DNA of 64,000 nt, taken from contig CAYPAI010000003.1 in NCBI GenBank assembly GCA_964408705.1, positions 5,382 to 69,381 on the forward strand. Direction: 5' to 3'. Made by a program: the position numbers and the translations under genes. How positions within the stretch are numbered: the stretch's first letter is position 1; the number at the start of each line of letters is the position of its first letter. Of the stretch, positions 1-55,731 are shown piece by piece. Origin of the DNA: Candidatus Woesearchaeota archaeon (lineage in GTDB: Archaea; Nanobdellota; Nanobdellia; SCGC-AAA011-G17; PNOQ01). The notes below the pieces were generated by a model that saw only the letters and a list, made by a program, of their open reading frames with translations, ran no database searches and was not told the DNA's origin.

Positions 1-1
1 T

Positions 2-613: not shown

Positions 614-624
614 GATTGAGTTAC

Positions 625-634
625 TTTTATAAAT
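625..634 (+). promoter_or_regulatory. TATA-box-like element (ttttataaat) about 27 nt upstream of ATG 658, implying a leaderless transcript
   Basis: AT-rich octamer at the canonical archaeal -26 spacing. No Shine-Dalgarno between it and the ATG. Confidence 0.4.
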
Positions 635-657
635 ATTTAATTAATAATTATTTTGTT

Positions 658-1158
658 ATGGAAGAAAATAAAAACAAGATAGAAGCAGTTCTTTTTACTA
701 CAGGGAGGTTTTTGACTGTAGATGATATTAGTAGGCTTGTAGGCATTGGGAGTGTAGGGTACATTAAAAAAGCCCTTTTAGACTTAGAGGAAGATTATTC
801 AAATCGTAAAACTGCTTTGGAAATAATTAAAGATGAAAAAAATAGATGGAAGTTAAATATAAAAAATAGTTATTTGTATTTAACTGAAAGATTATTGACA
901 GATGCGGAGTTGGATAAACCTACTCAAGAGACTCTGGCAATTATTGCATATAGGCAACCTGCTATACAATCTGATGTAATAAATTATAGGGGAAATAAGG
1001 CTTATGATCATGTTAAAAAATTAAAAGAAGAAGGTTTCGTTCTTTCAGAGAGATTTGGTAGGACTAAACTATTAAAGTTGACTCCTAAGTTTTTTGATTA
1101 TTTTGATGTTGTTGAAGATGAATTGAAAGATAAGTTAAAAATCGGTCAAGGTGAGTGA
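658..1158 (+). CDS. scpB: Segregation and condensation protein B (ScpB-like, winged helix)
   Basis: IEAVLFTTGRFLTVDDISRLVGI... and LAIIAYRQPAIQSDVINYRG are typical of the two ScpB winged-helix domains. The start was trimmed to the internal Met that lies at promoter distance from the TATA. Confidence 0.55.
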   Translation: MEENKNKIEAVLFTTGRFLTVDDISRLVGIGSVGYIKKALLDLEEDYSNRKTALEIIKDEKNRWKLNIKNSYLYLTERLLTDAELDKPTQETLAIIAYRQPAIQSDVINYRGNKAYDHVKKLKEEGFVLSERFGRTKLLKLTPKFFDYFDVVEDELKDKLKIGQGE

Positions 1159-2387
1159 GTTTGGAATTTTTAACTTATATATATTTATTTTTTATTTTAG
1201 TTTCTTTATATTTGGGTTCTCTATTCCTTATTTTATACTATAAAAATAAAGAGTCTTTACAAGAAGATAGACCTACTACTGTGTTTCCCACAATTAGTGT
1301 TTTAGTTCCCGCATATAATGAAGAAGATACCATAGCACATACTATTACTGCAATCTTAGGTCAGGATTATCCAAAAGATAAACTGGAAATAATCGCAATT
1401 AATGATGGGAGCAAAGATAATACTTTGAAGGAAATGAAGAAATTTGGAAGTAAGATAACTGTTTTGGATAAAAAAAATTCAGGAAAGGCTGATTCATTAA
1501 ATGAGGGTTTAAAAATAGCTAAGGGAGAGTTGTTTGCAGTTATTGATGCAGATTCTTATCCTGGAAAAAATGCTATCACTAGTATGGTCGCATTTTTTGA
1601 AGAAGAAGGTGTTTCTGCTGTAACTTCAACAATTTTGGTTAAAAATAGAAAAAAAATTTTAGAGTATATGCAATCTGTTGAATATGCAGTTATTGCATGG
1701 GGTAGGAAATTATTGCAGTATTTAGAAGGTATTTATGTTACTCCAGGTCCACTAAGTATATACAAAAGAAAACAATTTATTAGTTATGGTGGTTTCGATT
1801 CTGAAAACTTAACTGAAGACATTGAAGCAACTTGGAAGATTTTAAGCCATAATAATAAAGTTAGAATAGATCTTAGATCTAAAGTGTATACGACAGTTCC
1901 TTCTAAAATAAGTGTATGGTGGAAACAAAGACTTAGGTGGAATTTAGGTGGGTTTCAAACAATGTGGAAATATAGGTCTACATTTTTTAATCCTAAACAT
2001 GGAATGATGGGTTTGTTTGTAGTTCCGTTTTTTATGTCACAATTTGTGTTAAGTTTGTTTGGGTTTGGAGTTTTTACTTATGTGTTAAGTAAAAAGGTAA
2101 TAAACACTTACTTAGTTTCTAAATATGCTTTGGCTGCCGAAAGTAATTTCCTTACATTGAGTGCATTGAATCTCAATCCTAATGTTTTTGCAGTTTTTGC
2201 AATGGTTTTGTTAGTTATGGGAGTTTTATATTTAATTTATTCTCAATTAGTTGTAGAAAATTCAAGAATCGGAGTAAAACAATATCATAAATTTGCAATA
2301 TATATGTTAGTATACTTAACTTTATATCCTCTTATTTATATTCACTCTTTATGGAGATTAATTATAACTAAGGAGAGAACATGGTAA
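1155..2387 (+). CDS. Processive family-2 glycosyltransferase (cellulose/chitin/hyaluronan-synthase-like, multi-TM)
   Basis: The GT2 core has a DxD-type signature (IDADS) and the Q(Q/R)xRW motif (WWKQRLRWNLGG) that marks processive beta-glycan synthases. There are N- and C-terminal TM helices. Confidence 0.6.
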   Translation: MSLEFLTYIYLFFILVSLYLGSLFLILYYKNKESLQEDRPTTVFPTISVLVPAYNEEDTIAHTITAILGQDYPKDKLEIIAINDGSKDNTLKEMKKFGSKITVLDKKNSGKADSLNEGLKIAKGELFAVIDADSYPGKNAITSMVAFFEEEGVSAVTSTILVKNRKKILEYMQSVEYAVIAWGRKLLQYLEGIYVTPGPLSIYKRKQFISYGGFDSENLTEDIEATWKILSHNNKVRIDLRSKVYTTVPSKISVWWKQRLRWNLGGFQTMWKYRSTFFNPKHGMMGLFVVPFFMSQFVLSLFGFGVFTYVLSKKVINTYLVSKYALAAESNFLTLSALNLNPNVFAVFAMVLLVMGVLYLIYSQLVVENSRIGVKQYHKFAIYMLVYLTLYPLIYIHSLWRLIITKERTW

Positions 2388-3055
2388 AACCTCAAACAGA
2401 TGTGTTTTGGAAAGCTTTAGTTTTTACAACAGTGGTGTTTATCATTGGAGTTTACTTGGGTGTAGTAATCGAAGATGCAAGACTAGAAGGATTTCAAGAA
2501 GAGTTTGATAATCTTGTAGTTAGATGGGGAGATTTGAGATTACAATCTTATTATTATCAAAATATAGATGAACTTTCTTGTGAAAAATCAATTGATGAAA
2601 ACTTAAAGTTTGGAGATAGGATTTATGAAGATGGATTAATTCTTGGAGAATATGAACAGGCTAATAGGTTGACTGATAAACTTGAATTTGAAAAGAAGAA
2701 GTATAATTTACTTAAAACTGAATTTTATATTAATTCAATGGTTTTAAAGGAAAAATGTGATGCAGATTATGATATTTTGCTTTATTTTTATATGGATTCT
2801 ACAGAAGATTTAGACATAAAAGCTCAACAGAATACTGTGTCTAGGGTTCTAGGAGATATCAAGGAACAGTATGGTCCTAATTTAATCTTAATACCTCTGG
2901 CAGCAGATATGGATATTTCTGTGATCAGTATTTTGTTAGAGACACATAATGTTCAATCTTTCCCTTCTGTATGGGTAGATTCTGGAGTAGTGCTTCAAGG
3001 AGTGTATAGTCTGGAAGAAATTTCTTCATTTTTATCGCCTCCCCCATCACCATAA
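2381..3055 (+). CDS. Hypothetical protein with one N-terminal TM helix; possible synthase partner
   Basis: Overlaps the GT2 gene by 7 nt and lies in the same orientation, which suggests a shared operon. I recognise no motif. Confidence 0.35.
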   Translation: MVKPQTDVFWKALVFTTVVFIIGVYLGVVIEDARLEGFQEEFDNLVVRWGDLRLQSYYYQNIDELSCEKSIDENLKFGDRIYEDGLILGEYEQANRLTDKLEFEKKKYNLLKTEFYINSMVLKEKCDADYDILLYFYMDSTEDLDIKAQQNTVSRVLGDIKEQYGPNLILIPLAADMDISVISILLETHNVQSFPSVWVDSGVVLQGVYSLEEISSFLSPPPSP

Positions 3056-3086
3056 TCTTTTTATTTTTGTTTAGTTTTCTAATTAT

Positions 3087-3545
3087 ATGGATATCTGTGA
3101 GATGTGTGGTAAAGAGGGTGAATTGGTTGATTCTATAGTCGAAGGAACAATGATGAATGTTTGTTTAGACTGTTCAAATTATGGTAAAGTTGTAATGATA
3201 AATAGGCCTGTGATAGATAGAAAGGTTAAAATGAAAAAAGAAACCGAAGAAGCAGGTTATGTGGAAGTTGTTGTTGATAATTATTCTGAAAGAATTAAAA
3301 AAGCTAGAGAAAATAAAAATATGAAACAAGAGGATTTGGCTAAAGCAATTGCTGAAAAAGAATCAGTGATACATCAACTTGAATCCTCAAAGTTAAAACC
3401 AAATTTTAAACTTGCTCAGAAACTAGAAATATTTCTTAATATAAAGATTTTAGAAAAGGCTGAAACCAATCTTTCCGAGAAAAAGAATGTAAATTTTAAA
3501 AGTTCTAATCTAACCATAGCAGATTTGATCAGCAAGAAAGACTAA
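3087..3545 (+). CDS. mbf1: Archaeal multiprotein-bridging factor 1 (aMBF1): Zn-ribbon plus HTH-XRE
   Basis: N-terminal CxxC...CxxC (CEMCGK...CLDCSNYGK). C-terminal cro/C1-type HTH (ERIKKARENKNMKQEDLAKAIAEKESVIHQLE). Confidence 0.65.
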   Translation: MDICEMCGKEGELVDSIVEGTMMNVCLDCSNYGKVVMINRPVIDRKVKMKKETEEAGYVEVVVDNYSERIKKARENKNMKQEDLAKAIAEKESVIHQLESSKLKPNFKLAQKLEIFLNIKILEKAETNLSEKKNVNFKSSNLTIADLISKKD

Positions 3546-3589
3546 CTAACCGAAAGGTTTAAAAGAATACCAAGTTCAATTTTTCTGAA

Positions 3590-3862
3590 ATGGAACTTAA
3601 TATTTTAGATAAGGGTAAGGATTTTATTAAGATTGAATTAGTTGGAGAAGATCATACTTTAGCTAATGCATTAGCAGATGAACTACATAATGATTCTCAT
3701 GTAACTGTTTCAGGATATAAAAGAGATCATCCTTTGGTAGGTAGTCCTGTGTTGGTAGTTAAGACCGATGGGAAAGAAGATCCCATTAAAGCTATTGAAG
3801 CATGTGTGGCTAGGTTGAAAAAGAAAAATTCGGAGTTCCTTTTACAGATTAAGGAAATATGA
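3590..3862 (+). CDS. rpoL: DNA-directed RNA polymerase subunit L (Rpo11)
   Basis: 90 aa. IELVGEDHTLANALADEL...VSGYKRDHPL is the conserved Rpb11/RpoL dimerisation fold sequence. Confidence 0.7.
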   Translation: MELNILDKGKDFIKIELVGEDHTLANALADELHNDSHVTVSGYKRDHPLVGSPVLVVKTDGKEDPIKAIEACVARLKKKNSEFLLQIKEI

Positions 3863-4434
3863 ACTCCTTAAGAAAAATCTGGAAATTTTTGTGGAATGAT
3901 GATACCCCATTAAGTTGGATTGTTTCTATAGGTTTAGCATTTGTTATTGTTAAGTTTTTGGTTTATCCTTCTATTGGGCTTTTGTTTGGAACTAGTTATC
4001 CAATTGTAGCAGTAGTATCAAGTAGTATGGAACATCCAGAAAATTTTGATAAATGGTGGGAGGATCATGAAGAGTGGTACACAGCTGCAGGGATAATTAA
4101 GGAAGATTTCTCAAATTTTAAGTTTAGAGATGGGTTCAATAAAGGAGATATTATGTTGGTTTTTGGTAAAAAATCAAAAGATATAAATATAGGTGATGTG
4201 CTAATTTTTGAGTCTACAACTCACTATCCAGTTATCCATAGAGTAGTCGGATTTTGGGAAGAAGGTGGAAGATATAATTTCCATACTAAAGGGGATAATA
4301 ACCAAGATAGCTATTCTAGGTTAAATGAAAAAGATATTCATGAGGATAGAGTTTTAGGAGTTGCTAGAATGAGGATACCTTTGTTGGGGTGGATAAAAAT
4401 TATGTTTACTAAACTATTAGGAGGGTTAATTTAA
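3859..4434 (+). CDS. Signal peptidase I, archaeal/ER type (Sec11/S26B)
   Basis: N-terminal TM, catalytic Ser box VVSSSMEHP, and the GDVLIF...HRV box. Confidence 0.65.
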   Translation: MNSLRKIWKFLWNDDTPLSWIVSIGLAFVIVKFLVYPSIGLLFGTSYPIVAVVSSSMEHPENFDKWWEDHEEWYTAAGIIKEDFSNFKFRDGFNKGDIMLVFGKKSKDINIGDVLIFESTTHYPVIHRVVGFWEEGGRYNFHTKGDNNQDSYSRLNEKDIHEDRVLGVARMRIPLLGWIKIMFTKLLGGLI

Positions 4435-4435
4435 A

Positions 4436-4762
4436 ATGGAAGAGTTATTTTGTTCGAAGTGTGAAAGTATAATGGTGTTAGATAGAGAAAAATCTAAACT
4501 TAGATGTATTAATTGTAATTTTATTCCTAGAAAAAAGGCCGGAAGTTTGGTGTTTAAGGAAAAAGTTGAATTGAGTAAAGATCAAGATATTGAAGTTCAA
4601 AGTAAGAAAGTTGAGACCCTTCCAAAAGTTAAAGAAGAATGTGGAAAGTGTGGAAATAAACATTCATATTATTGGACTCTTCAAACAAGGGCTTCTGATG
4701 AATCTGAAACTAGGTTTTTTGAGTGTACTAAGTGTACCCATAGATGGAGAGCCTATGACTAA
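4436..4762 (+). CDS. tfs: Transcription factor S (TFS / RpoM-like, TFIIS-type Zn ribbon)
   Basis: N-terminal Zn ribbon CSKC...CINC. C-terminal CGKCG...QTRASDESETRFFECTKCTHRWR with the acidic hairpin (RSADE-like). Confidence 0.75.
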   Translation: MEELFCSKCESIMVLDREKSKLRCINCNFIPRKKAGSLVFKEKVELSKDQDIEVQSKKVETLPKVKEECGKCGNKHSYYWTLQTRASDESETRFFECTKCTHRWRAYD

Positions 4763-4816
4763 ATGTCTAGTTTAGAATAGCAATTATTAAAAGGCATTGT
4801 GTATTCACTGTTTCTT

Positions 4817-5569
4817 ATGAAACTTGTTTTAGCTGAGCCTAGATTTTTGAAAGATAGTGTCAATATACTTTCAGATTTAGTTAGTGATGTAAGGATTAAG
4901 TTAGATTCAGATAAACTTGAAATTATTGCTATGGATCCTGCAAATGTTGCGATGATAGTCTTTAGATTATTGAATAGTGCATTTACAGAATATGATGTTA
5001 GTGGGATGGAAGTTGTTTCTGTTAATTTAGATAGTTTAAAACAAGTTTTAAGTCGTGCCAAACCTTCAGATAGTGTTGTTATAGAATTAGATGAAGAAAA
5101 AAATAAATTGAAGATAGGTCTTAGGGGAGAAACTAAAAGGAATTTTAGCCTTGGTTTAATAGATTATCATGAAAAAGATCAAAAAATTCCGGAGCTTAAT
5201 TTCCCAGGTTCAGTTAATATGAGTAGTTTAATTTTTAATGATGCAATAGAAGATATGAGTATAGTTTCAGATAGTGTTTCATTGAGCATGGTTCAAGGAA
5301 ATTTTTTAGTTGAAGCAGTTGGTACAAGTAATGATGCAAAAGTAGAAGTGAGAACTAATGAAAATACAGTTATAGATCTTGATAAAGAGAAAGAAGATAT
5401 AAAGTCTAAGTATTCTGTAACTTATTTAAAAAAAATTCTTAAAGGTGGAAAACTTACTGATAAAGTTAGTTTAAAGTTTGGTCAAGATTATCCTTTACAA
5501 ATAGAGTATAAAGTAACAGATAAATTACATCTGATGACGCTCTTAGCACCGCGTGTTAGTAATGATTAG
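4817..5569 (+). CDS. pcn: DNA polymerase sliding clamp PCNA
   Basis: MKLVLAEPRFLKDSVNILSDLVSDV... and the C-terminal LAPRVSND match the archaeal PCNA pattern. The start was trimmed to the internal Met. Confidence 0.7.
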   Translation: MKLVLAEPRFLKDSVNILSDLVSDVRIKLDSDKLEIIAMDPANVAMIVFRLLNSAFTEYDVSGMEVVSVNLDSLKQVLSRAKPSDSVVIELDEEKNKLKIGLRGETKRNFSLGLIDYHEKDQKIPELNFPGSVNMSSLIFNDAIEDMSIVSDSVSLSMVQGNFLVEAVGTSNDAKVEVRTNENTVIDLDKEKEDIKSKYSVTYLKKILKGGKLTDKVSLKFGQDYPLQIEYKVTDKLHLMTLLAPRVSND

Positions 5570-5575
5570 CGAAAT

Positions 5576-5584
5576 CTTTATAAA
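5576..5584 (+). promoter_or_regulatory. TATA box (tttataaat) about 27 nt upstream of ATG 5607; candidate promoter of the pilin-like operon
   Basis: Position and sequence fit the archaeal core promoter. It lies in the only sizeable gap before a run of six abutting genes. Confidence 0.4.
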
Positions 5585-5606
5585 TTTCTGAATAGAATCT
5601 TGTTTT

Positions 5607-6476
5607 ATGTCAAAAAGAGGCCAGATTACTATTTTTATAATCCTAGGAATTGTTATAATAACTGCCATTGCGTTATTTTTATACCTTGGTGATTTTTTTA
5701 CTAAAACCGATGTTGCCGAGGAAAATGTTGAGTCTTTTGTTTCTTCTCAAATTGAACCAAGTAAAAAAGTTGTAAGAGATTGTGTTAAGGAAAGTTTGAT
5801 TGATGCAGTTATTTTTGTTTCAAAAGGAGGAGGTTATTTTGATTCTCCAATGGGTGTTGATTTTTGTGAAGAATATTCTTCTGATTACGAAGATTGTTTA
5901 ATTCCATATGTAGCATCATATAGTTATTACCTTGGGCAGAATAGAGTTATAACAAAAGATAAATTTGCTATAGAGCTTAATGATTATATGACTAATTCTG
6001 ATAATTTTCAAGAAATTGTTGATTGTGTAAACATTAATCTAGATGTTGTCGAATCTTCAGGAGTAGACATTTCTGAGAGAGGTTTTAGTTTAAGTGTTCC
6101 TGAAGTTGGTGAAGATCGTATATATCAAACTGTTGATTTTTTTGATTTATTAACTATTAGTAAGCTTGATTATTCTGCTACAGTTTCTGAAGTTGGATTA
6201 AATATTGAAGCCCCAATAGGTAAAGTTCAACAAGTTGTATCAGATGTAGTAGGATGTTATTTAGGAGAGTATTTACCAAGTGATTATAATAGTTATTGTA
6301 ATCAAGACAATATTGTGTTTAATGCTGGATGGTATAATGTAGATGTACTTCAAGATCCAAGTATTAATATTGGAAATTTTAATGATTGTGTTGGAGAATG
6401 TGTAGATTGTTATTATGTAGGTTTTGATATAGAAGATAATGATGCTGAGTTTAATATAATATTAAAAGAATGTTAG
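5607..6476 (+). CDS. Type IV pilin-like protein (class III signal peptide), Cys-containing extracellular domain
   Basis: N-terminus MSKRGQ-ITIFIILGIVIITAIALFLYL: a short basic n-region, RG|Q, then about 22 hydrophobic residues. Confidence 0.5.
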   Translation: MSKRGQITIFIILGIVIITAIALFLYLGDFFTKTDVAEENVESFVSSQIEPSKKVVRDCVKESLIDAVIFVSKGGGYFDSPMGVDFCEEYSSDYEDCLIPYVASYSYYLGQNRVITKDKFAIELNDYMTNSDNFQEIVDCVNINLDVVESSGVDISERGFSLSVPEVGEDRIYQTVDFFDLLTISKLDYSATVSEVGLNIEAPIGKVQQVVSDVVGCYLGEYLPSDYNSYCNQDNIVFNAGWYNVDVLQDPSINIGNFNDCVGECVDCYYVGFDIEDNDAEFNIILKEC

Positions 6477-9400
6477 GAAAAAATAAGAAAAGGATGGCTG
6501 TATTTATGATTTGGTTAGTTATTTTTTCTTTTTTTAATTTTATAGCTATAGCTCCTAAAAGTGTTAGTGCAGAAGTTCCATATTGTTGTGTTCAAACTGA
6601 AGAAGATGATAATGGAAATAGGGAGTACTGTGTGTCTAGCGAAGACTCTGATGATTTTGGAGAACTGCAATGCGATGGTACTCCAGTTTATGGTTCTAAT
6701 TGTGCAGATGCTAATGCACCTCAAGATTGTGCATTAGAAACGTGTATACCTATTCTTGGTGATTCTTGTTTATCTAATTATCCTAAAGTTAAATGCTTGA
6801 ATGAAGGTGGTGTTTCTGATCCTGGAAATAAAGAGAACATAGCTGAATGTAGGCTTGGATGTTGCGACCTTGGAGGGTCTTGTACAATCGTTGAGCAAAA
6901 TGAATGCTTAGGCAGTCATGATTCTGGAATAACTAATCAAGTATCTTGTAGTCTTTCTTGTTCCCCTAGTCAGTTAGGTTGTTGTGAAATGGTAGGATCT
7001 TGTTCATTTACTAATTTAGGTGATTGTAATATAAATGATCCAAGTGTTGTTTTCCATCAAGATAGAAATTGTAATGAAGTGACCTCTTGTGCGGCAAGGG
7101 CAGATTCAAATTCATATCTTGGTTGTGGTGATTCTGGCCTAGAACAACATTCTGAACATAGTGTGTATTGGTATGATTCTGAAGGTAATCGCGAAAGTAT
7201 TCCTACTTCTGGTGTAAATTATGTTGGGCCATCTGGAGATATAATTAGTACTGGAGATGGGGCTTGCGGATATCCTGATTATACTTGTGAAGATCCTGAC
7301 GGGTTAGGAGTGGGCCAAGGGGCATATTGTAAAAGTACAGCATGTTTATTAGAAGGAGATTGTACTAATTGTAATCCTACTGAGTTCTTACATGGTGAAA
7401 CTATTTGTTTAAATCCTTGGGGTGGACATTTTACTAATGAAGCGAGAAGTAAGGAAATAAAGGGTTTTGTTTTAGAATGTAATTCTGGTCAAATAGTTGA
7501 GCCAACCGATGTATTTAGTAGGAGTGATTTTGTTTGTGTGAATGGTGAAAAAACATTTAATGATATAACTAGAAAGACTGCACGTAAGATTTCTAATGAA
7601 TATGAAAAATGTTTAGATTGTGGAGATGGCGGTTGGTCAATTTTAGACACAATATCTTATGTTCCTGGTTTTGGTGGTTTAATACAAGGTACCTTTGGAT
7701 TGCTTGGTTTTGATGATTTAGTGTGTACGTCTGGTTCTGGGTGGGATATTCTTGGTGCCGATTTTACAGGCACTAAATGTGAGGATGTTGGAAAAACTAG
7801 CGACGGTATTCAGATGTGTGAATATGATCATGATTTTTATGCGCCGATTGGATCTTGTAATCCTGTAAGCCCTCCCGAAGGAAACAGGTGTGATCTTTGT
7901 GGGAAAGGTGGAGATAAATATACAAATATTTGTACAATGGAAGAGTGTAATGTGCTTGGAGACTGTACTTTTGAACCTCAGACTGTAAATATAGAGAGTG
8001 CATTGGCAGCTGGTGCTTTATCTTTTGGAACTGCAGTATCAATATATACTGGTTGGTGGGTTGGATGTAAGGCCGCTAGTGCTTTAGGGTTTACAGGTTG
8101 TGAAGCTCCTCCAAGTTGGGCTACACCAGCTGAGTTATGGTATGGTACTGATAAAGTTGCATTATCTGTGTTTGGTCTAGATGTTACTACTTCTGCAATT
8201 TATTGGATGATTTTTGGATTAGTAGTGGATATTACAGGTGAGCTAACTAATGAAGAAGAGCAATATGTTTCTATTTTAGCAGATGAAGATGGATCCATTA
8301 ATCTTGCAAGAGCTTTGACTGTTGTGAATACTGTGTCTACTGAATCAGGGATAGAATATCATTGGATTTGGAAAAGATTATTGGGTTCATTATCTGCAGA
8401 AGTTTTTAACCCAAATCTTATTGGTGAGTTAATGTTGTCTGCAAAATTACATAAGATATATGAAAATATTATCACACGTGCAATTGAGGAAGGATATGGT
8501 CAAATGGGCTATTTATTTGTAGGTCAACCTTGTAATGCCGCTTGTGCTAATGCTATGGCCGAGGAAGTAGTAAATGCAGCTGCAGAGCAGGGTATAGAAA
8601 TTTCTCATGAAACTGCTCTTGAAGGGTTTAAGGAAATTGCAACATTTCATGGAACTCCTGCAACACCTTTAATCCCTGAAATCCCTGCAATTCCAGGAAC
8701 TTCTGCCTTAGGAGAATTTACAGATGCTAGTGGGAATATAATTACTTCAAATACTCCTGAAACTACTGTCACATGGACTGAAACTATTCCTGCAGATCCT
8801 GCAACATCTACACCTGCATTAGGAAATCTTGTAGATGCTGATGGAACTGTTTTATCTTCAGATGTTGCTCAAACCACAGTTACTTGGACTGAGACTACTC
8901 CTGCTGTAGCTGGTACGTCTGCAGTTCCTGAAGTTCCTGCTGCTGATGCAATTGCACCTGGTGCAGATTCTATAAGTGATGCTGCTGAAACTGCAGCTGA
9001 TGCTTCTGCAGATGTTGCTGATGATGCTGTAAAAAGTCAATTAGGTACTTGGACAAAACATATTCTTAGAACTGTTGGTGCAATAATCCATGTAGTTAGT
9101 ACTGCTAATTCATTGAAACCAGGAAAATGTGTTGCTGAAACTCCTTATGTTGGTAATGAGAAATGTGAAAATTGTGGAGGTGCTGAAGGACAGTGGTATT
9201 GTAGTCAAGAAAGATGTGATGTTTTAGGAGCAGTAAATAATCAATGTAAATATTTACAAGGTGAAGGTTTTGAAGATAGTAAATGTGTGTCTTTAGATCA
9301 TTCGGACGTAAACCCTCCTCAAATAACTAGGATTAGTGCTCAATTATTTGATTCATTAGGAGATTATGTTGAAACAAAAGAAGTAACTAGTAATAGTTTG

Positions 9401-10609
9401 AAAGTTAGCACTAGTTATAACTGGCCTGATTTAAACTCTATTTATTTAGAAATTCAAACTGATGAGGATGCTAAGTGTAAATATAGTAAACAAAGTAATT
9501 CGGATTTTGATATGATGGATTCTTTAGACTTTGAAGGAGGGATACATTATTCCTTGACCCATAATACAAATATTACTTTTACAGAGTTTGATAAAACTGG
9601 GGGAGACGTAGTTATTTATCTAAAATGTGAAGATATTAATGGAAATGTTCATACTGCTGGTGATGATTTTAATACTGTTGAATTTAGTTTTGGGGAGAGG
9701 CCCGACGAGTTACCCCCTGAAGTCATAGTTAAATCTCCTTCAAATGGTGCATTTTTGCCTGATACAGTGAGCACAATAGATTGGGTTCTTAATGTATATG
9801 ATAATAATGATATATCTGGTTGTAGATATACTCAAGATAACAGTACTCTTTATTCAGATATGGAATATGATTTTGAGTATAAAGGTTCAACTTCTTGTGC
9901 AGGTACTAATTATGGTTGCCAAGAGTATGACGCTAGCGTTATTTTAGAAGATTATGAAAGTTTAAATATAACCCAACTTGTTGATTATGGTGCTGGAAGT
10001 TTAAATTATAATTTTTATTTTAGTTGTATAGATGGATCTGGAAATGACAATAATCCACCTTATGGATATGCTTTTAATATTGTCCCAGGTTTTGATGTAA
10101 ATATAACTTCACCGGTTAATGGTTCAGAAATATATGAAATTAGTCCTGAGATAGTTGTTGAGACTTCAACTTCTGCATCGTGTAGTTATGAAATTGATGG
10201 AGTAGAATATGACTTTGAATATGGAGATTCTTTGTTAACTAATTTACATTCGATTTTCCACTCTGGAAATCTTACTGGAAGTCCTGCAGGAGTTTCACAT
10301 ATACTAACTGTAGGTTGTAATGATTTGGCTTATAACGAAGCTACTGATCAAATAGTTTTTGAGGTTATTCAAGATTTAGTTTCCCCTAATTTAGTTAGAT
10401 TATATACTTATAATGGGAAATTATGGTTAGTTTTAGATGAGGAATCTTCGTGTAGCTTTACAACTTTAGAAAATGATCAACCTGTAGATATGGTGAGTAT
10501 GTATGGTGAAGATAAATACTTTACAGATTTGATAGATGGAGTTGATTTGTATTATATAACTTGTGAAGATGTGTGGGAAAATGAAGCAAGTTTTACGATC
10601 TATCCATAA
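6470..10609 (+). CDS. Giant (1379 aa) cysteine-rich secreted surface protein; putative adhesin
   Basis: Sec-type signal peptide (MLGKNKKR-MAVFMIWLVIFSFFNFIAIA-PKSVSA|EV). About 500 aa of very Cys-dense sequence. A Pro/Thr-rich linker contains a 37-aa tandem repeat (TTVTWTET). A second Cys module repeats the C..C...C.VLG.C pattern. C-terminal beta-rich region. Confidence 0.6.
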   Translation: MLGKNKKRMAVFMIWLVIFSFFNFIAIAPKSVSAEVPYCCVQTEEDDNGNREYCVSSEDSDDFGELQCDGTPVYGSNCADANAPQDCALETCIPILGDSCLSNYPKVKCLNEGGVSDPGNKENIAECRLGCCDLGGSCTIVEQNECLGSHDSGITNQVSCSLSCSPSQLGCCEMVGSCSFTNLGDCNINDPSVVFHQDRNCNEVTSCAARADSNSYLGCGDSGLEQHSEHSVYWYDSEGNRESIPTSGVNYVGPSGDIISTGDGACGYPDYTCEDPDGLGVGQGAYCKSTACLLEGDCTNCNPTEFLHGETICLNPWGGHFTNEARSKEIKGFVLECNSGQIVEPTDVFSRSDFVCVNGEKTFNDITRKTARKISNEYEKCLDCGDGGWSILDTISYVPGFGGLIQGTFGLLGFDDLVCTSGSGWDILGADFTGTKCEDVGKTSDGIQMCEYDHDFYAPIGSCNPVSPPEGNRCDLCGKGGDKYTNICTMEECNVLGDCTFEPQTVNIESALAAGALSFGTAVSIYTGWWVGCKAASALGFTGCEAPPSWATPAELWYGTDKVALSVFGLDVTTSAIYWMIFGLVVDITGELTNEEEQYVSILADEDGSINLARALTVVNTVSTESGIEYHWIWKRLLGSLSAEVFNPNLIGELMLSAKLHKIYENIITRAIEEGYGQMGYLFVGQPCNAACANAMAEEVVNAAAEQGIEISHETALEGFKEIATFHGTPATPLIPEIPAIPGTSALGEFTDASGNIITSNTPETTVTWTETIPADPATSTPALGNLVDADGTVLSSDVAQTTVTWTETTPAVAGTSAVPEVPAADAIAPGADSISDAAETAADASADVADDAVKSQLGTWTKHILRTVGAIIHVVSTANSLKPGKCVAETPYVGNEKCENCGGAEGQWYCSQERCDVLGAVNNQCKYLQGEGFEDSKCVSLDHSDVNPPQITRISAQLFDSLGDYVETKEVTSNSLKVSTSYNWPDLNSIYLEIQTDEDAKCKYSKQSNSDFDMMDSLDFEGGIHYSLTHNTNITFTEFDKTGGDVVIYLKCEDINGNVHTAGDDFNTVEFSFGERPDELPPEVIVKSPSNGAFLPDTVSTIDWVLNVYDNNDISGCRYTQDNSTLYSDMEYDFEYKGSTSCAGTNYGCQEYDASVILEDYESLNITQLVDYGAGSLNYNFYFSCIDGSGNDNNPPYGYAFNIVPGFDVNITSPVNGSEIYEISPEIVVETSTSASCSYEIDGVEYDFEYGDSLLTNLHSIFHSGNLTGSPAGVSHILTVGCNDLAYNEATDQIVFEVIQDLVSPNLVRLYTYNGKLWLVLDEESSCSFTTLENDQPVDMVSMYGEDKYFTDLIDGVDLYYITCEDVWENEASFTIYP

Positions 10610-10610
10610 G

Positions 10611-11111
10611 ATGGAAAAAGGACAATTAATAGGGCAGCCTTTAGTTTTTTTATTTTATTTAATTGCTGCAAGTTTGATTTTATTTGTAGGAATTAAGGCA
10701 GTTACTTCATTAAATTGTTATAATGATAAAATAGAATATTATGATTTTATAAGGAGATTTGAGAGTAGAATCAGTACAATTAATAATGATGCAGTAGGAA
10801 GTAGGTTATCATTAAAGGAATTAAATTTACCTTCTAAATTTGATTATATTTGTTTTTTTGAAGATTCACAGAATTTAGATTTAGTAGAGAATTATAAATT
10901 AAGATTATTAATTGAAACTAGTATGAATCAAAATGATCCTCCTAATATGTTCGTTTATTCTTCTGATGCTTGCAGTGACTTTGAAGTAATGGTTGAAAAG
11001 ATTAAAGATTTGAATATAGGTGAAAATTTTTGTGATTCACTTACAGATAGATCTTTTAATGCTGTCCTTGAATCTATCCCAGGTGAAGTTAATATATCAA
11101 AATCTATTTAA
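10611..11111 (+). CDS. Type IV pilin-like protein (class III signal peptide)
   Basis: The ATG at 10611 lies immediately after the stop of the giant gene. MEKGQ-LIGQPLVFLFYLIAASLILFVGI. The listed ORF start at 10563 overlaps the upstream gene and adds a non-hydrophobic leader. Confidence 0.5.
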   Translation: MEKGQLIGQPLVFLFYLIAASLILFVGIKAVTSLNCYNDKIEYYDFIRRFESRISTINNDAVGSRLSLKELNLPSKFDYICFFEDSQNLDLVENYKLRLLIETSMNQNDPPNMFVYSSDACSDFEVMVEKIKDLNIGENFCDSLTDRSFNAVLESIPGEVNISKSI

Positions 11112-11127
11112 ATTACTTAATTAAAAA

Positions 11128-11985
11128 TTGAGTATGGAAAAGGGAGGACAAGGTATACAGTTTAATTGGATTTTTATTATTATTGCAGGAGGTTTAATTT
11201 TAATTTTTTTTATGTTTTTTATTAATAATTATTATGATCTTCATAAATTGAAAGTTGGGTCTGAAACTGCAAGGGGATTGGATCAGGTTTTTTTAAGTGC
11301 TAAATCCACTCCTCAATACAAAAATTTTGATTTGAAAGGAAATGAATTTGATTTAAATTTTGAGTGTGGTTTTTTTGTAGTAAATGATGAGTATAGGCAG
11401 GAAACAGATTATGTTGTGTTTGGGGAGGACTTAACTGAGGTGAGCGAATTAGTAATTTGGTCTAAAGAGTTTAAAAAACCATTTAATGTTGATAATGTGT
11501 TGTATGTTTTAGATGTAAGAAAAAAAGTTTATGTCGAAGGGAATCTAGATTTTTTAAAAGGTTTTCCTGAAGATATAGAGGTTGTTTCTAATGTTAATGA
11601 TGCAGAACTTGTTGTATTTTTTGATTATTGTCCTCCTGGGTATGAGAATAAGAAGAAAGTGTGCATTGTTGATGATAAAATAATTTTTGAGAATAATGTA
11701 TACCCTTATTATGATGATATCTTAGTGTATGCTATTCTATTTTCAGATCTCACTAGTTTTGAATGTGGAGTTACTCAACTCGAGAATAAATGGTCAAATC
11801 TTTTCAAGATATACTCTAAGAAAATAGATTTTATGTCAGGGTGTAGTTCACATTCTAATATCTTAAAATCTGAGTTGGATTCTGCCTTGAGCCAGGTGCT
11901 AAGTGGAGAAGGTATTTTTAATGAAGAGGAAATAATTTATGCTAACAGGAATTTAGCTAACCTTGGTTGCGGGGTGGTATTTTGA
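11128..11985 (+). CDS. Type IV pilin-like protein (class III signal peptide), Cys-containing
   Basis: MSMEKGGQ-GIQFNWIFIIIAGGLILIFFMFF. Confidence 0.5.
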   Translation: MSMEKGGQGIQFNWIFIIIAGGLILIFFMFFINNYYDLHKLKVGSETARGLDQVFLSAKSTPQYKNFDLKGNEFDLNFECGFFVVNDEYRQETDYVVFGEDLTEVSELVIWSKEFKKPFNVDNVLYVLDVRKKVYVEGNLDFLKGFPEDIEVVSNVNDAELVVFFDYCPPGYENKKKVCIVDDKIIFENNVYPYYDDILVYAILFSDLTSFECGVTQLENKWSNLFKIYSKKIDFMSGCSSHSNILKSELDSALSQVLSGEGIFNEEEIIYANRNLANLGCGVVF

Positions 11986-12419
11986 AAAAAGGACAAGTTC
12001 AAATACAAGAAACTACTCTTGTAATATTTATTTTTACTGTTATAGTCGGCTTAGGTTTGATTGGTTTTTACAAGTTTAGTATTAATAACATAGAAGATTT
12101 AGATATGAAGTACCAGGAAAATAAATTTAAACAATTAGTTGATGTTATACCAAATCTTTCTGAATTAAAATTATCTCAATTAGGAGTTGAGTCTGAGCCT
12201 TGTGTGGATTTAATTAAGGCTCAAATATTTAAGGAGATGCAAGAAGAATATGATTTCGGTTTTAAAAAAATACAAATTGTTGGTTCAACCCCGGTAATTA
12301 TATACGAGAAAAAGAAAGATTCAGATAGTTTAAGAAAGTATAGTTCTCCTATCTGCACATATGACCCCTACACCAAGAGGTTTGAAGTTGCAAAATTAGA
12401 GGTGGATTGGTATGTCTAA
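11967..12419 (+). CDS. Type IV pilin-like protein (class III signal peptide)
   Basis: MRGGILKKGQ-VQIQETTLVIFIFTVIVGLGLIGF. Overlaps the upstream gene by 19 nt. Confidence 0.5.
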   Translation: MRGGILKKGQVQIQETTLVIFIFTVIVGLGLIGFYKFSINNIEDLDMKYQENKFKQLVDVIPNLSELKLSQLGVESEPCVDLIKAQIFKEMQEEYDFGFKKIQIVGSTPVIIYEKKKDSDSLRKYSSPICTYDPYTKRFEVAKLEVDWYV

Positions 12420-12831
12420 AAAAGGACAAGTTGAAACGTTAGGTTTAGTTGTGATAATTATATTAATTTTATTTTTAGGTTTAATATTTTTAAGGTATTC
12501 AGGAAATAATGATGATCCTATCGACGATAAGTTTTTATCCCTAAAAGCTAATAATTTTCTTAGTGCAATTAAACAGTTAAGTATAGGTAATTATAATTTT
12601 GAGTATTATGTTTCTGATTGTTGCGTAGGTAATCCAAACTCTTGTAATAAAGTTAATGAGGCAGTTCTATCTTCTAAAGAATATTTGGAAGAGGATGCAG
12701 ATTTTAAATTAACTTGTTTTTCAGGAGTAGTTTATGATTTTAACATGGGAAATTGTGATTTTTATGTAAATTCTGAGACGTTTGTATTATCATCAGGAGA
12801 TAAGATATCTTTAAGAATATGTAGAATTTAG
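12412..12831 (+). CDS. Type IV pilin-like protein (class III signal peptide), Cys-rich
   Basis: MSKKGQ-VETLGLVVIIILILFLGLIFL. Overlaps the upstream gene by 8 nt. Confidence 0.5.
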   Translation: MSKKGQVETLGLVVIIILILFLGLIFLRYSGNNDDPIDDKFLSLKANNFLSAIKQLSIGNYNFEYYVSDCCVGNPNSCNKVNEAVLSSKEYLEEDADFKLTCFSGVVYDFNMGNCDFYVNSETFVLSSGDKISLRICRI

Positions 12832-12841
12832 TATTTTTGCT

Positions 12842-12865
12842 ATTTGGGGCCCTTATTGCCCAAAT
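12842..12865 (+). terminator. Hairpin (ATTTGGG-10 nt-CCCAAAT) followed by a T-rich tract, just downstream of the last pilin-like gene
   Basis: Inverted repeat read directly. Archaeal terminators are usually T-tracts, and this one is modest. Confidence 0.25.
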
Positions 12866-12898
12866 TTAGCTAAATTTAGCCTGTTTTATTTACTCAAA

Positions 12899-12917
12899 TG
12901 TATAAATGCTTATAAAG
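12899..12917 (+). promoter_or_regulatory. Tandem TATA-like elements (tgtataaa / ttataaag) about 140-160 nt upstream of the S-layer ATG; long 5' UTR
   Basis: These are the only TATA-like boxes in the 227-nt intergenic region. The downstream gene has a strong Shine-Dalgarno instead of being leaderless. Confidence 0.35.
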
Positions 12918-13042
12918 GGAAAATTTACGTAAAATAACTAGAAAAAACTTAGTTAGACGACGGTATATTGACTAAAAGTGATGACAGTAATGTTGATGCA
13001 AAAAGAGGTGATAAAAATAATATTAAAAACAATTAAACACGT

Positions 13043-13049
13043 GGAGGTG
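13043..13049 (+). promoter_or_regulatory. Shine-Dalgarno GGAGGTG 9 nt upstream of ATG 13059
   Basis: Perfect complement to the 16S 3' end. Rare in this window, where most genes appear leaderless. Confidence 0.55.
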
Positions 13050-13058
13050 TTTTGATTA

Positions 13059-15131
13059 ATGAAACAATTTATTAGAAAAGTTTCAGCTGTTGGTACTAGC
13101 GTAGCAATGTTAGGAATGACAGTTGGAGGCGCTGTGGCTGCAGATCTAGCAGATATGCCTGCTCCTTTCGTAGCAGATAATTCTTATGTTAGTACAGCTA
13201 TGGTTATTGGTAGTTCAAGTGATACTGCCGCTAGAAATACGTTAAAGACGTACTTCGACGGATTTGTTGAATCAAGTACTGCTGTTGGAGATGTTACTTC
13301 AAGTACAGATGAAGAAAAGATATATGTAGGTGAAAATCTTCTTGCAGAGTTTTCATCAACCTTAGATGATGGAGATTTAGATGGTCTATGGGACGATTCA
13401 ATCTCTTTTGAAGGTGAAAGCCTTGAAACTTCAGAAATTATTGAAGTTACAGGTAATGTTTACTTAACTACTTCAGGTGTTGAAAATGAAGAAGAATTAA
13501 GCGATAAAGTTGCTACATATACAAATGCATCAAATAGTTGGGCTTACAGATACACATTCGATGAAGATTTCAATGACACAGTTACAAGTTCAGATGAACT
13601 TAAAGTTGACTTTTTAGGTAAAGAACTTAGAATAACTAGTTTCACTGCTTCAAACAATAAAGTAGAATTTACTACAGGTGCTGATTATTCCTTAGGACAA
13701 GATTCTTCTGTTGCAGTAGGTGGACACACAGTTTATGTTGGAACTATCTTTGAATCTAAAGTTGAAATTTGGGCAGACAATGAAGATCATAAGTTTTTAT
13801 CAGATGGTGATGAAGAGACTTTCGATATAGGAAATGATCAAGTTGAAGTTAAAGTTGAAGACATAGGTTATACTGATGATGTAGCTTCAAGAACAGTTCT
13901 TGTAACTGTTGGTGAAGATATTACTACTTCAGTAAAAGATGATGACGCAGTTCAAACTGAGTTAGGTTCACCTGATGTTGATGATGATAACGACGATGCA
14001 GAGTGGAATTGGCATAATTCAATTACTAGAGATGGTGCACTTACTGCAGGAGATTACATCGGAATTCAATTCCATCAAAAGATGAATAATTACGATGACG
14101 ATCCAGCGCCATTAGGTAGTGGAGAAAGCATGTCTACACCATTCGGTTATTTGACACTAGATTTCGATGTTCCAGAACAAACCTACGATCAATATACTAT
14201 TGAGTTTGAACAAAACTACGATATCGATCATGGTGATGTTGATGAAGTACACGTTGTCTTGATTACTGCTAATGACGGAACTAGTAGTAATGAAGGAATT
14301 AGTATTGACGGAACTGACACTGCAAAACTAGCAGTATTGGATAATGGTTCAATATACTATGAAGATAACGATGGAGACTGGCAACCAGGATCAGTAGATG
14401 CAGGAAACTATTCTACTGGAAATTTATATCTTGAATCTGGAACAGGAACTACTAAAAAACTAGGATTGCTAAAAGCAAACGGAACTACTGGTATGGGTAG
14501 AGAAGGATTTATTCCTGGCGGATTAGGAGCTCTTAAGTTAGAAGATACAGAGTCTGGTGATGACGGTAGTATAACTGGAGATATTACATTTAATGTTTCA
14601 GTTAATTCTACACAGTTAGGTGAAACTGCTGAAGATTCAGATAGCGGAGACGTACAATATCAAAGAAACAGTGCTTACATTGGTACTGGTGGATGGGATG
14701 ATGGAGACATGGTAACTGCTTATGGTACTAAGTTTGTAAACTTAGAATCAAACTCAGATAATGACCAAGTTGTATTCTATTTGCCTTCTGAAGAATTGTA
14801 TGCAGATTACTCTTTTAGTTTAAGAGGATCTAGTAGTTCTTCAAGTACTGAAGCTGATTTGGTAACTGCTAGTGAAGATACATCAGGATACAGTAACTTA
14901 GTTCTTGTTGGTGGTCCTGCTGTTAACAGTGTAACTGCTAGCTTTATGGGTAAATCTTTCCCTAGTTACGGAGATGCATCTGGAATTGCTGCAGATACTG
15001 CATTAGTTCAACTTGTAGAACAAGCTGGACAAACTGCATTGATTGTAGCTGGTTGGGAAACTGCAGATACTCAAAGAGGAGCTAGTGCTGTAGCTGCAGG
15101 TGGATTGACTGGTTCAAGTCATATAGCGTAA
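13059..15131 (+). CDS. S-layer (surface layer) protein, Methanococcales/Thermococcales type
   Basis: Signal peptide ...VAMLGMTVGGAVA|ADL. Acidic Thr/Ser/Asp-rich 690-aa protein. The C-terminus (SNLVLVGGPAVNSVTASFMG...TALIVAGWETADTQRGASAVAAGG) resembles the conserved S_layer_C region (LVLVGGP...VAGW..DT..AA). The gene is visibly less AT-rich than its neighbours. Confidence 0.65.
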   Translation: MKQFIRKVSAVGTSVAMLGMTVGGAVAADLADMPAPFVADNSYVSTAMVIGSSSDTAARNTLKTYFDGFVESSTAVGDVTSSTDEEKIYVGENLLAEFSSTLDDGDLDGLWDDSISFEGESLETSEIIEVTGNVYLTTSGVENEEELSDKVATYTNASNSWAYRYTFDEDFNDTVTSSDELKVDFLGKELRITSFTASNNKVEFTTGADYSLGQDSSVAVGGHTVYVGTIFESKVEIWADNEDHKFLSDGDEETFDIGNDQVEVKVEDIGYTDDVASRTVLVTVGEDITTSVKDDDAVQTELGSPDVDDDNDDAEWNWHNSITRDGALTAGDYIGIQFHQKMNNYDDDPAPLGSGESMSTPFGYLTLDFDVPEQTYDQYTIEFEQNYDIDHGDVDEVHVVLITANDGTSSNEGISIDGTDTAKLAVLDNGSIYYEDNDGDWQPGSVDAGNYSTGNLYLESGTGTTKKLGLLKANGTTGMGREGFIPGGLGALKLEDTESGDDGSITGDITFNVSVNSTQLGETAEDSDSGDVQYQRNSAYIGTGGWDDGDMVTAYGTKFVNLESNSDNDQVVFYLPSEELYADYSFSLRGSSSSSSTEADLVTASEDTSGYSNLVLVGGPAVNSVTASFMGKSFPSYGDASGIAADTALVQLVEQAGQTALIVAGWETADTQRGASAVAAGGLTGSSHIA

Positions 15132-15168
15132 AGGAATTAATTCCTTTATTTTTTCTTTTTCTTTTTTT
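15131..15168 (+). terminator. Palindrome AAGGAATTAATTCCTT directly after the stop codon, followed by a run of about 22 T-rich nt
   Basis: Perfect 16-nt palindrome plus ttattttttctttttcttttttt. Fits the termination signal of a highly expressed gene. Confidence 0.55.
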
Positions 15169-15207
15169 AACAAAAGTTTTTTAACTTAATTGGTTCTCTA
15201 AATATAT

Positions 15208-15693
15208 ATGTCAAAGTCCAAAGAACAAAGAAATAAAATTATTTTTGGATTATTTATCATTTTTTTGATGGTAAGTAGTACTGCAGGATTCATTTATTCA
15301 GGAGGTTCAACTCAAAAAATAAATGGATTTAAATTCACTAATGTAGGGGATGGTTGGCAAGTTTGGATAGAAGAACTAAACTCTTACCTTATTTTTAGAT
15401 ATCTTCCAAATGAAATAAATTTTGATTTTGATTTTTTAGATAATAGCTCTAAGTTTAAAATATTAAATAAAAATTGGGATCAATCTTCTTTGGAAAAGTT
15501 GAGAACTGCTCTACTCTTTAGAAGTATTCAAACTGAGATTATTGATGATTTAAATTGTGAGGAGTATACTCTTGTGTTAAATAATCTTTATTCTGATTTA
15601 GTATTAACTAAAGAACAAAAATGTTTTTATATTGAAGGAGATTCATTAAAGTTTGTGGAAGGAGTTATTTACAAAGTGTTTAAGGTTATATGA
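15208..15693 (+). CDS. Hypothetical membrane-anchored protein
   Basis: N-terminal TM (IIFGLFIIFLMVSSTAGFIY). No recognisable domain. Confidence 0.3.
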   Translation: MSKSKEQRNKIIFGLFIIFLMVSSTAGFIYSGGSTQKINGFKFTNVGDGWQVWIEELNSYLIFRYLPNEINFDFDFLDNSSKFKILNKNWDQSSLEKLRTALLFRSIQTEIIDDLNCEEYTLVLNNLYSDLVLTKEQKCFYIEGDSLKFVEGVIYKVFKVI

Positions 15694-55730: not shown

Positions 55731-55731
55731 G

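Follow-up and report, generated by a model that had tools for sequence, protein, structure and literature searches.

The subject of this study is a large Cys-rich protein of a Candidatus Woesearchaeota archaeon, encoded by an open reading frame (ORF) within a stretch of 64,000 nucleotides (nt) of contig CAYPAI010000003.1, called here the window. The protein, hereafter the giant, carries an export signal, contains homologous modules and domains, belongs to a large family found in Woese- and Pacearchaeota, and is encoded next to genes for pilin-like proteins. With moderate confidence, we consider the giant to be a large subunit, rich in disulfides and not itself a pilin, of a surface apparatus that is related to type IV filaments in these DPANN archaea and most likely serves adhesion or cell contact. 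A preliminary description of the locus, prepared from the nucleotide sequence and its translations, had characterized the giant as an exported, Cys-rich, modular protein with a duplicated module, and all of these traits were confirmed. It had missed, however, the most informative facts, namely how large the family is, that it is restricted to Woese- and Pacearchaeota and that it has a near-obligate partner with a class III (prepilin-type) signal peptide.

The giant protein and its family

The window has a GC content of ~30% and is an archaeal segment. The giant was found with 100% identity in three public sources, the NCBI, ENA and Logan assemblies. A word-indexed search recovered 20 full-length homologues of 1141-1497 amino acids (aa), and adding the family profile to this search gained two proteins only (22 homologues, 1119-1497 aa). 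All of them are unannotated, and those that are named are Woesearchaeota or 'archaeon'. Their alignment is collinear from the signal peptide through the conserved C-terminal [FY]T[IV]YP (TIYP), which excludes a frameshift fusion. The preliminary description had allowed for an ORF created by an assembly error or by a frameshift joining two genes; with this collinearity, the identical protein in three sources and 144 relatives in species-representative genomes, we regard the chance of such an artefact as practically nil. Of the 64 Cys, 52 are shared by 90% or more of the homologues. The conserved parts are the N-terminal aa 35-505 and the C-terminal aa 885-1379, while aa ~593-851 defy alignment.

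Only when 1.84 billion cluster representatives (50% identity clusters) were searched exhaustively with the profile did the full extent of the family emerge, with 4,235 members at E 1e-3, 2,674 at E 1e-10 and 1,532 at E 1e-30. The named members were Pacearchaeota or Woesearchaeota. Close relatives align end to end; what most others have in common is the C-terminal half (profile positions ~650-1179), the N-terminal region being strongly divergent across the superfamily. The 144 relatives in species-representative genomes were recovered with a single peptide pattern. The 77 loci kept from these genomes all came from metagenome-assembled genomes (MAGs) of Woese-, Pace- and Nanoarchaeota, plus one MAG labelled 'bacterium'. 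The latter match, on a giant-bearing contig (L057, JAUUWR010000018.1) of the MAG 'bacterium isolate CSMAG_44', probably reflects a mislabelled or contaminated bin, every other match being archaeal. The giant was usually present as a single copy per locus in the loci examined. The Woesearchaeota contig L006 carries two divergent paralogous giants at 1653-6146 (1497 aa) and 7503-11249 (1248 aa), which are ~25-31% identical in patches and are each preceded by their own ~265-aa partner with a class III signal peptide.

Database searches returned nothing useful for the giant in Pfam (E <= 0.1), for the 20 homologues in Pfam (E <= 5) or in NCBIfam; a DUF1655 match (E 0.026) was below threshold and was dismissed. 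The whole-family profile had no match among PDB sequences, and homology to an intracellular enzyme family was not found. No relative was detected on the viral contigs of IMG/VR, and a viral origin of the giant was discarded. The earlier impression that the giant belongs to no characterized family was thus upheld by searches of Pfam, NCBIfam and PDB sequences and by fold searches of PDB and BFVD, none of which gave a match for the N-terminal half or the duplicated module. No description of the family was found in the searchable literature, the coverage of which is incomplete, but only general models of archaeal pilus loci. The features of the giant, all on the + strand, are as follows (Ig, immunoglobulin).

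6470..10609, +, giant ORF, 1379 aa, 64 Cys, with collinear homologues
6470..6571, +, Sec-type signal peptide, aa 1-34, predicted cleavage after VSA
6572..7984, +, N-terminal Cys-rich ectodomain, aa 35-505, ~470 residues, 43 Cys
6839..7099, +, pair of small modules in tandem (GCC-x5-C-x7-C), aa 124-166 and 165-210
7850..7972, +, 6-Cys module A, aa 461-501 (C463, C474, C477, C488, C493, C499)
7994..8245, +, charge-poor central block, aa 509-592, ~85 residues, candidate membrane hairpin
8246..9022, +, hypervariable linker, aa 593-851, unalignable between homologues
8705..8929, +, tandem 37/38-aa duplication, aa 746-782 and 783-820
9023..9109, +, amphipathic helix, aa 852-880, just before module B, conserved, helical in the AlphaFold2 model
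9122..9286, +, 6-Cys module B, aa 885-939 (C887, C899, C902, C911, C916, C926, plus the invariant C939)
9323..10606, +, four tandem Ig-like beta-sandwich domains, aa 952-1074, 1084-1205, 1210-1300 and 1308-1377

The N-terminus reads as a Sec-type signal peptide, as had been proposed. It comprises MLGKNKKRMAVFMIWLVIFSFFNFIAIAPKSVSA, followed by EV, and combines a basic n-region with a hydrophobic core of 20 residues (free energy, dG, of -2.0 in a simple Hessa-scale scan) and a small-x-small site, features that are kept in the homologues; judged from the sequence, cleavage after VSA is likely. For the region that follows, roughly 70 Cys in about 500 aa had been reported; the actual number is 43 for aa 35-499, the protein having 64 over its entire length. 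Of the 43 Cys, 35 recur in 90% or more of the 20 homologues, and we infer that they form disulfides. Invariant motifs of this domain include YWYDSxGNRE and CxDPDGKGG. AlphaFold2 modeling of aa 35-630 gave a mean pLDDT of 60, with block means of 66-90 only for aa 35-205. The model displays a repeated secondary-structure pattern of about four beta-hairpin-plus-short-helix units, among them the two GCC-x5-C-x7-C modules, which are related to each other (hhalign probability 82.5%, E 1e-5, 22 columns). When this weak model was compared to the folds in PDB and the viral BFVD, no match was better than E 0.38.

Because of a C-x3-CC-x5-C-x7-C spacing, a hevein domain was considered, but the hevein/chitin-binding type 1 family (PF00187) gave no Pfam match at E <= 5 in 20 members and no fold match. 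This likeness, as well as those to YD repeats (VYWYDSEGNRE) and thrombospondin type 3 repeats (CxDPDGKGG), was seen by eye only and was unsupported by any search. The giant contains several CxxC pairs, including C381/384, C474/477 and C899/902; none of them is followed by His, so that the CxxCH haem motif is missing and a multihaem cytochrome can be ruled out. As a side observation, aa 35-880 (window 6572-9109) are free of N-glycosylation sequons, while ~6.6 would be expected from the composition, and the Ig-like rod (window 9323-10606) has six, which equals the expected density.

The motifs quoted in the preliminary description were all found where it had placed them, including two copies of a C..C...C.VLG.C module at aa 475-505 (A) and 897-933 (B), spaced by 422 aa. 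This duplication is beyond chance: profile-profile comparison of modules A and B, using the 20 homologues, gave an hhalign probability of 93% (E 3e-7) across 42 columns, in which six Cys of each module align, and on the basis of these profiles the modules are homologous. The unit is longer than was seen earlier, comprising ~45 residues and six Cys that are invariant in the joint alignment, with the consensus G-x-C-x(10-13)-C-x2-C-G-x(7-9)-C-[TS]-x3-C-x3-G-x(1-5)-C. In module A, all six Cys are also invariant in the alignment of the homologues. No relative of the module profile was found in PDB (best E 0.09), and its zinc-ribbon and toxin matches (E >= 0.09) were judged to be compositional noise.

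The C-terminal ~430 aa had been described as Cys-poor, beta-rich and rich in Asn, Tyr and Asp, which agrees with our counts (10 Cys, 24% Asn, Tyr and Asp) and with the AlphaFold2 model of aa 845-1379. This model, built with a 22-sequence alignment, reached a mean pLDDT of 84 and consists of a long helix, the small module B and four beta-sandwich domains. Foldseek retrieved 444 PDB matches at E <= 0.001, all of them tandem Ig-like arrays such as the GhpA grappling hook, titin, protocadherins and the MG domains of complement, with a best E-value of ~1e-10 and 9-14% identity. Five of the six hhalign pairs indicate that the domains are homologous to each other (probability 70-97%), the pair of Ig2 and Ig3 reaching 29%. 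An invariant Cys pair is found in every domain, domain 2 holding a second one. Pfam gave weak Big_13, Big_7 or HYR matches in a few homologues (in two of 20, Big_13 at 6e-5 and HYR at 0.078), and the giant itself had no such match, so that no gathering threshold of an Ig-type family was reached. Of the two possibilities raised earlier, a lectin or an Ig-like domain, only the Ig-like one is thus backed by the model, Foldseek and hhalign, and no evidence was found for a lectin. All 17 Cys of aa 887-1365 (window 9122-10606) are invariant in the 20 homologues, namely the six of module B, C939 and five Ig-domain pairs. As this number is odd, one Cys may be free or form an intermolecular bond.

Between the two conserved parts lies a block that is rich in Gly, Ala, Ser, Thr and aromatic residues and is nearly uncharged. 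In the 20 homologues it has 0.2-2.7% Lys and Arg and 2-3% Asp and Glu, compared to 18-23% Asp and Glu in both flanks. AlphaFold2 predicted two helices in this block, at aa 508-538 and 571-593, which cover the hydrophobic stretches quoted in the preliminary description (aa 512-532 and 577-590). The helices are only marginally hydrophobic (Hessa-scale dG +1 to +5 kcal/mol). They had been called amphipathic, which is not the case, as both have a hydrophobic moment of 0.07; it is a third helix, at aa 852-880, that is amphipathic (moment 0.44). In a set of 95 superfamily representatives, two long charge-free runs (medians 37 and 25 aa) occur within the 330 residues preceding module B, in comparison to 17-18 aa for the longest runs elsewhere, and about 80% of the representatives have the two runs at the equivalent place. 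Some distant relatives have a strongly hydrophobic helix (dG -2 to -8) at this position before module B. We read the block as a putative membrane hairpin with both arms outside.

Within the hypervariable linker, aa ~727-850 form a Pro/Thr/Ala-rich segment (19% Ala, 18% Thr, 10% Pro) containing the two repeat copies, ALGEFTDASG...TTVTWTET... and ALGNLVDADG...TTVTWTET.... The copies are identical at 19 of 37 aa and at 75 of 111 nt (68%). Their BLOSUM62 local score of 102 was not reached in any of 5000 shuffles of the stalk (23 +/- 5; z = 15). Tandem Repeats Finder did not report the 111-nt duplication since the copies are too diverged. The duplication noticed in the preliminary description is therefore real, but it is not part of the family architecture, as stalk and TTVTWTET repeat are absent from every homologue in the alignment. 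The stalk may be O-glycosylated, as the preliminary description supposed; being lineage-specific, it cannot be central to the function.

Linkage to pilin-like genes and the surrounding window

The giant gene is surrounded by five genes for small proteins and followed by an S-layer gene.

5607..6476, +, partner gene, 289 aa (~280-aa family), class III signal peptide MSKRGQ-ITIFIILGIVIITAIALFLYLG
10611..11111, +, pilin-like gene 2, MEKGQ-LIGQPLVFLFYLIAASLILFVG, start 2 nt after the giant stop
11134..11985, +, pilin-like gene 3, MEKGGQ-GIQFNWIFIIIAGGLILIFFMFF
11967..12419, +, pilin-like gene 4, ..LKKGQ-VQIQETTLVIFIFTVIVGLGLIGF
12412..12831, +, pilin-like gene 5, MSKKGQ-VETLGLVVIIILILFLGLIFL
13059..15131, +, S-layer protein gene, PF05124 S_layer_C (E 1e-7, better than the curated cut-off), follows the operon directly in this clade

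The stop of the partner gene overlaps the start of the giant gene by 7 nt. All five small proteins begin with a short basic stretch, a [KR]-[GA] cleavage site and ~20 hydrophobic residues, and the same motif is present in their counterparts in L001, L003, L006 and L008. We call them pilin-like because these N-termini have the features established for archaeal class III signal peptides. Gln at position +1 after [KR]-[GA] is invariant in 16 partner homologues. No relative of the partner family was found in Pfam, NCBIfam or PDB.

Linkage was assessed in 74 giant-bearing loci or genomes, with homologues identified by phmmer. A class III-like N-terminus was present in 40% of the ORFs flanking the giant, compared to 4.7% among the remaining ORFs of these loci (odds ratio 13, p 6e-49). 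A partner homologue was found in 68 of the 74 loci and was directly adjacent to the giant in 61. The other four pilin-like genes have homologues in 28-35 loci each, gene 2 standing next to the giant in 29 loci, and the S-layer gene has homologues in 23. The latter is syntenic in L001, L003 and L006 and is missing from L008. The order PCNA, ~280-aa pilin-like gene, giant, pilin-like genes and S-layer gene recurs in independent Woesearchaeota contigs.

Upstream of the giant are the genes for aRF1, ScpB, a family 2 glycosyltransferase (GT2), RpoL, TFS and PCNA. About twenty co-oriented genes in all, with tiny or overlapping gaps, extend over window 1-16337 (+) from aRF1 to two small membrane proteins past the S-layer gene, in an order that is conserved in the Woesearchaeota contigs L001 and L003. 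The two small proteins (15208-15693 and 15690-16337, +) have one N-terminal hydrophobic segment each, are syntenic in L001 and L003 and gave no match in Pfam or NCBIfam. The gene at 3859-4434 (+), 2 kb upstream of the giant and in a position that is syntenic in all close relatives, encodes a 191-aa protein without a Pfam match but with motifs like those of archaeal type I signal peptidase (SSSMEHP...GDIMLV...HRV); the giant would need such a peptidase.

The scanned ORFs of the window are housekeeping, nucleoside-salvage and glycosylation genes. Near the surface operon is a nucleoside-salvage set resembling the AMP pathway at 16464-17936 (-), 20218-21618 (-) and 22252-23055 (-), consisting of a thymidine-phosphorylase-type gene (assigned by synteny with L001 and L003), a RuBisCO large subunit and an IF-2B-family protein, which may be a ribose-1,5-bisphosphate isomerase. 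The extensive glycosylation machinery mentioned in the preliminary description is indeed present, with AglB/STT3, a PMT_2-type mannosyltransferase and many glycosyltransferases. A large glycosylation island of low GC content (0.23-0.29) covers ~26000-62800 and includes several GT2 genes and sugar epimerases/dehydratases. Assigned to this island are the following.

24772-26079, UDP-glucose dehydrogenase
26080-26646, -, sulfotransferase
26943-28427, Wzx/MurJ-type flippase
55684-57375, PMT_2-type protein mannosyltransferase
59100-61658, -, AglB/STT3

Possible roles of the giant protein

The operon fits published models of archaeal pilus loci, and therefore we read the giant as a large non-pilin subunit. 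The Sec signal peptide, the Cys conservation, the overlapping pilin-like genes, the Ig rod that is similar to rods of adhesins and filaments, and the conserved hairpin all argue for this reading. The giant would be exported via Sec and its signal peptide, recognizable in the sequence, would presumably be removed. The charge-free hairpin of aa 509-592, acidic on both sides, would then keep it in or at the membrane of the producing cell, both arms projecting to the outside, one being the Cys-rich N-domain and the other the variable spacer, module B and the four-Ig rod. In this organism, the spacer would be lengthened by the private Pro/Thr stalk. Given the gene linkage, the giant would be produced together with the five prepilin-type proteins, foremost the ~280-aa overlapping partner, and may form a complex with them. 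A short filament or a tip or priming complex could finally present the giant at the surface, in analogy to minor pilins with PilY1 and to archaeal models that combine a pilin cluster with a large adhesin. As module B and the Ig rod are common to the whole superfamily, they are likely the docking part, and the N-terminal Cys-rich region, being more divergent between distant members, is likely the part that binds a ligand.

Several observations weigh against the giant being such a filament subunit. The pilin-like neighbours are unrecognized by Pfam and NCBIfam, and their identity comes from the N-terminal motif alone. The Walker motif of an assembly ATPase (GxTGSGKTT) was found neither in the 64-kb window nor in 1,125 ORFs of the 74 loci (~8 kb around the giant), and T2SSE, T2SSF and Peptidase_A24, the last two indicating platform and prepilin peptidase, were not found among the 30 window ORFs scanned with Pfam; the filament assembly machinery, if any, would be encoded elsewhere. 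A membrane hairpin is ill-suited to a subunit that a long pilus carries away at its tip, and this hairpin is only marginally hydrophobic. Among close relatives, the N-domain is well conserved (48% identity vs 41% for the C-terminal part), which is unusual for the tip of a host-specific adhesin. In addition, no member of the Woese- and Pacearchaeota lineages has, to our knowledge, been cultured.

The absence of a linked ATPase gene would be in keeping with a different role, in which the giant is a structural component of the envelope and, in the manner of SlaB or the S-layer-binding FlaF/FlaG, organizes or anchors the S-layer as a membrane-anchored pillar or spacer. Its pilin-like neighbours would in that case be accessory proteins anchored in the membrane and not subunits of a filament, and the giant would not serve adhesion. 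The S-layer gene directly downstream in this clade, two well-conserved ectodomains and the acidic flanks of the hairpin are compatible with such a role. The housekeeping neighbourhood (aRF1, ScpB, RpoL, TFS and PCNA) with its conserved synteny suggests constitutive use, and a preprint has suggested that Ig-rich proteins associated with type IV filaments (TFF) may prime the cell wall (bioRxiv 10.64898/2026.04.22.720090). However, the S-layer gene accompanies the giant far less often than the partner does (23 vs 68 of 74 loci) and L008 lacks it, the two divergent giants of L006 with their own partners look more like diversification of a binding function, and the strong divergence of the N-terminal region across the superfamily also disagrees. 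We therefore regard an S-layer role as rather unlikely. Still less probable is a soluble or loosely attached giant with a metal, redox or enzymatic role, the linkage to pilin-like genes having no functional meaning; to this we give very little credence. The CxxC pairs and the lack of sequons in aa 35-880 could be taken to point that way, as could the fact that many such organisms inhabit anoxic environments, where extracellular disulfides are less obvious. On the other hand, there is no CxxCH motif and no match to an enzyme or metal-binding family, the zinc-ribbon matches of the module are compositional, and a pairing in >90% of the loci, including overlapping reading frames, would be left unexplained.

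A more far-reaching possibility is that the giant inserts into or fuses with the membrane of a partner cell, the charge-free segment acting like a fusion peptide or a glycine-zipper pore former. It would thereby help putative symbionts to open a cytoplasmic bridge, pushed or positioned by the pilin-like proteins. The conserved ~85-residue uncharged block is marginally hydrophobic for a resident transmembrane segment and directly follows a disulfide-rich ectodomain, and the family is limited to DPANN lineages that are thought to be host-dependent. Cytoplasmic bridges and attachment organelles have been reported for cultured DPANN (PMC11420986). Nevertheless, no fold similarity to viral or cellular fusogens was found in PDB or BFVD with the low-confidence model (mean pLDDT 60; no match of any kind better than E 0.38), no relative occurs on viral contigs, and the strongly hydrophobic helices of some distant members fit a plain anchor, so we consider membrane insertion improbable. 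The same low probability applies to its extended form, in which the giant, the ~280-aa partner and the other pilin-like proteins would make up a host-contact organelle of Woese- and Pacearchaeota, the hairpin entering the partner membrane and opening a cytoplasmic connection. If true, this would be a new archaeal membrane-breaching device, driven by type IV filaments and built from two Cys-rich folds that have not been described before.

Few uncultured archaea match the Woesearchaeota and Pacearchaeota in abundance and diversity. Both lineages are assumed to be host-dependent, and we know of no attachment machinery in them. A large unannotated family that is tied to its partner in more than nine of ten loci is therefore a concrete and testable candidate for the core of a surface-contact apparatus. 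It adds two unrecognized building blocks, the ~45-residue 6-Cys module and the ~470-residue Cys-rich domain, and once the family has a name, thousands of 'hypothetical proteins' would become an operon-level marker for DPANN envelope biology. Should the giant serve generic adhesion only, this would be a useful but unsurprising extension of the pilin-cluster-plus-adhesin arrangement; the result would be surprising only if the giant breaches membranes, which is a long shot.

Comparison with known filament systems

The bacterial minor-pilin operons with PilY1/PilC, such as fimU-pilVWXY1E of P. aeruginosa, resemble the present locus in having about five small prepilin-type genes beside a non-pilin protein of >1,000 aa with a Sec signal. 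The giant is likewise a Sec-signal non-pilin protein inside a class III gene cluster, with five abutting or overlapping flanking genes, as would be expected of a PilY1-like protein. In PilY1, the conserved C-terminal part docks and the more variable N-terminal part faces the ligand, and the same division emerges from the superfamily comparison of the giant. The two proteins differ in their domains, as no PilY1 beta-propeller (PF05567), vWA or DUF2341 was found in the giant (Pfam E <= 0.1) or in 20 homologues (E <= 5). In the AlphaFold2 model, the C-terminal part consists of four Ig-like domains instead of a beta-propeller, and PilY1 does not have the central charge-free hairpin. Moreover, the PilY1 operon is bacterial, whereas the giant is archaeal and has no secretin, ATPase or platform gene nearby.

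Archaeal type IV pilus loci contain about five minor pilins, large 'adhesins' with signal peptides, S-layer-like proteins and many conserved Cys, and models of these loci explicitly borrow the analogy of PilY1 at the tip (PMC4858521). The locus of the giant shares with the Epd locus of Methanococcus maripaludis (TFF system 1) the Gln at +1 of the class III signal peptides. An EppA-type site with Gln at +1 was reportedly described by Szabo et al. in 2007. Also common to our locus and to the Epd locus and the models of Makarova et al. 2016 are at least five minor-pilin-like genes, large proteins with signal peptides, an S-layer-like protein and commonly conserved Cys. In contrast, the large proteins of the Epd locus carry DUF2341, which the giant and its homologues lack, and the Epd locus includes peptidase, ATPase and platform genes, none of which was seen near the giant in the Walker scan or among the 30 Pfam-scanned window ORFs. 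Unlike the Epd-locus proteins, the giant, its partner and the four other pilin-like proteins match no Pfam or NCBIfam model. The giant did not match S-layer families (PF05124) either, while its neighbour at 13059-15131 does.

Large Ig-rich adhesin-like proteins, the function of which is not known, recur in archaeal TFF loci, and GhpA has been compared with them in the same study, which also reports system 1 in DPANN (bioRxiv 10.64898/2026.04.22.720090). These archaeal adhesins (arCOG05616, arCOG07037, UpsX) and the bacterial GhpA share with the giant the tandem Ig-like beta-sandwich rods, and GhpA fragments were the top structural matches of its C-terminal half (E 1e-10). The likeness is one of generic fold only, with 9-14% identity and a TM-score of 0.2 over the whole rod, and neither GhpA nor the TFF adhesins have a counterpart of the Cys-rich N-domain, the duplicated 6-Cys module or the central hairpin. 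A resemblance to the HYR, Big_13 and Big_7 domains lies in the Y-x-[IF]-x-C-x-D-x2-GN-x5-6-F-x-[VI] strand pair in which the four domains of the giant each end; their conserved intradomain Cys pairs are a family-specific difference. By analogy, the operon would thus work like minor pilins with PilY1 or like Epd-type loci, yet the giant is not a member of those families. Novel features are the Cys-rich domain at its N-terminus, the 6-Cys module in two copies, the hairpin in the centre and the obligate partner of ~280 aa.

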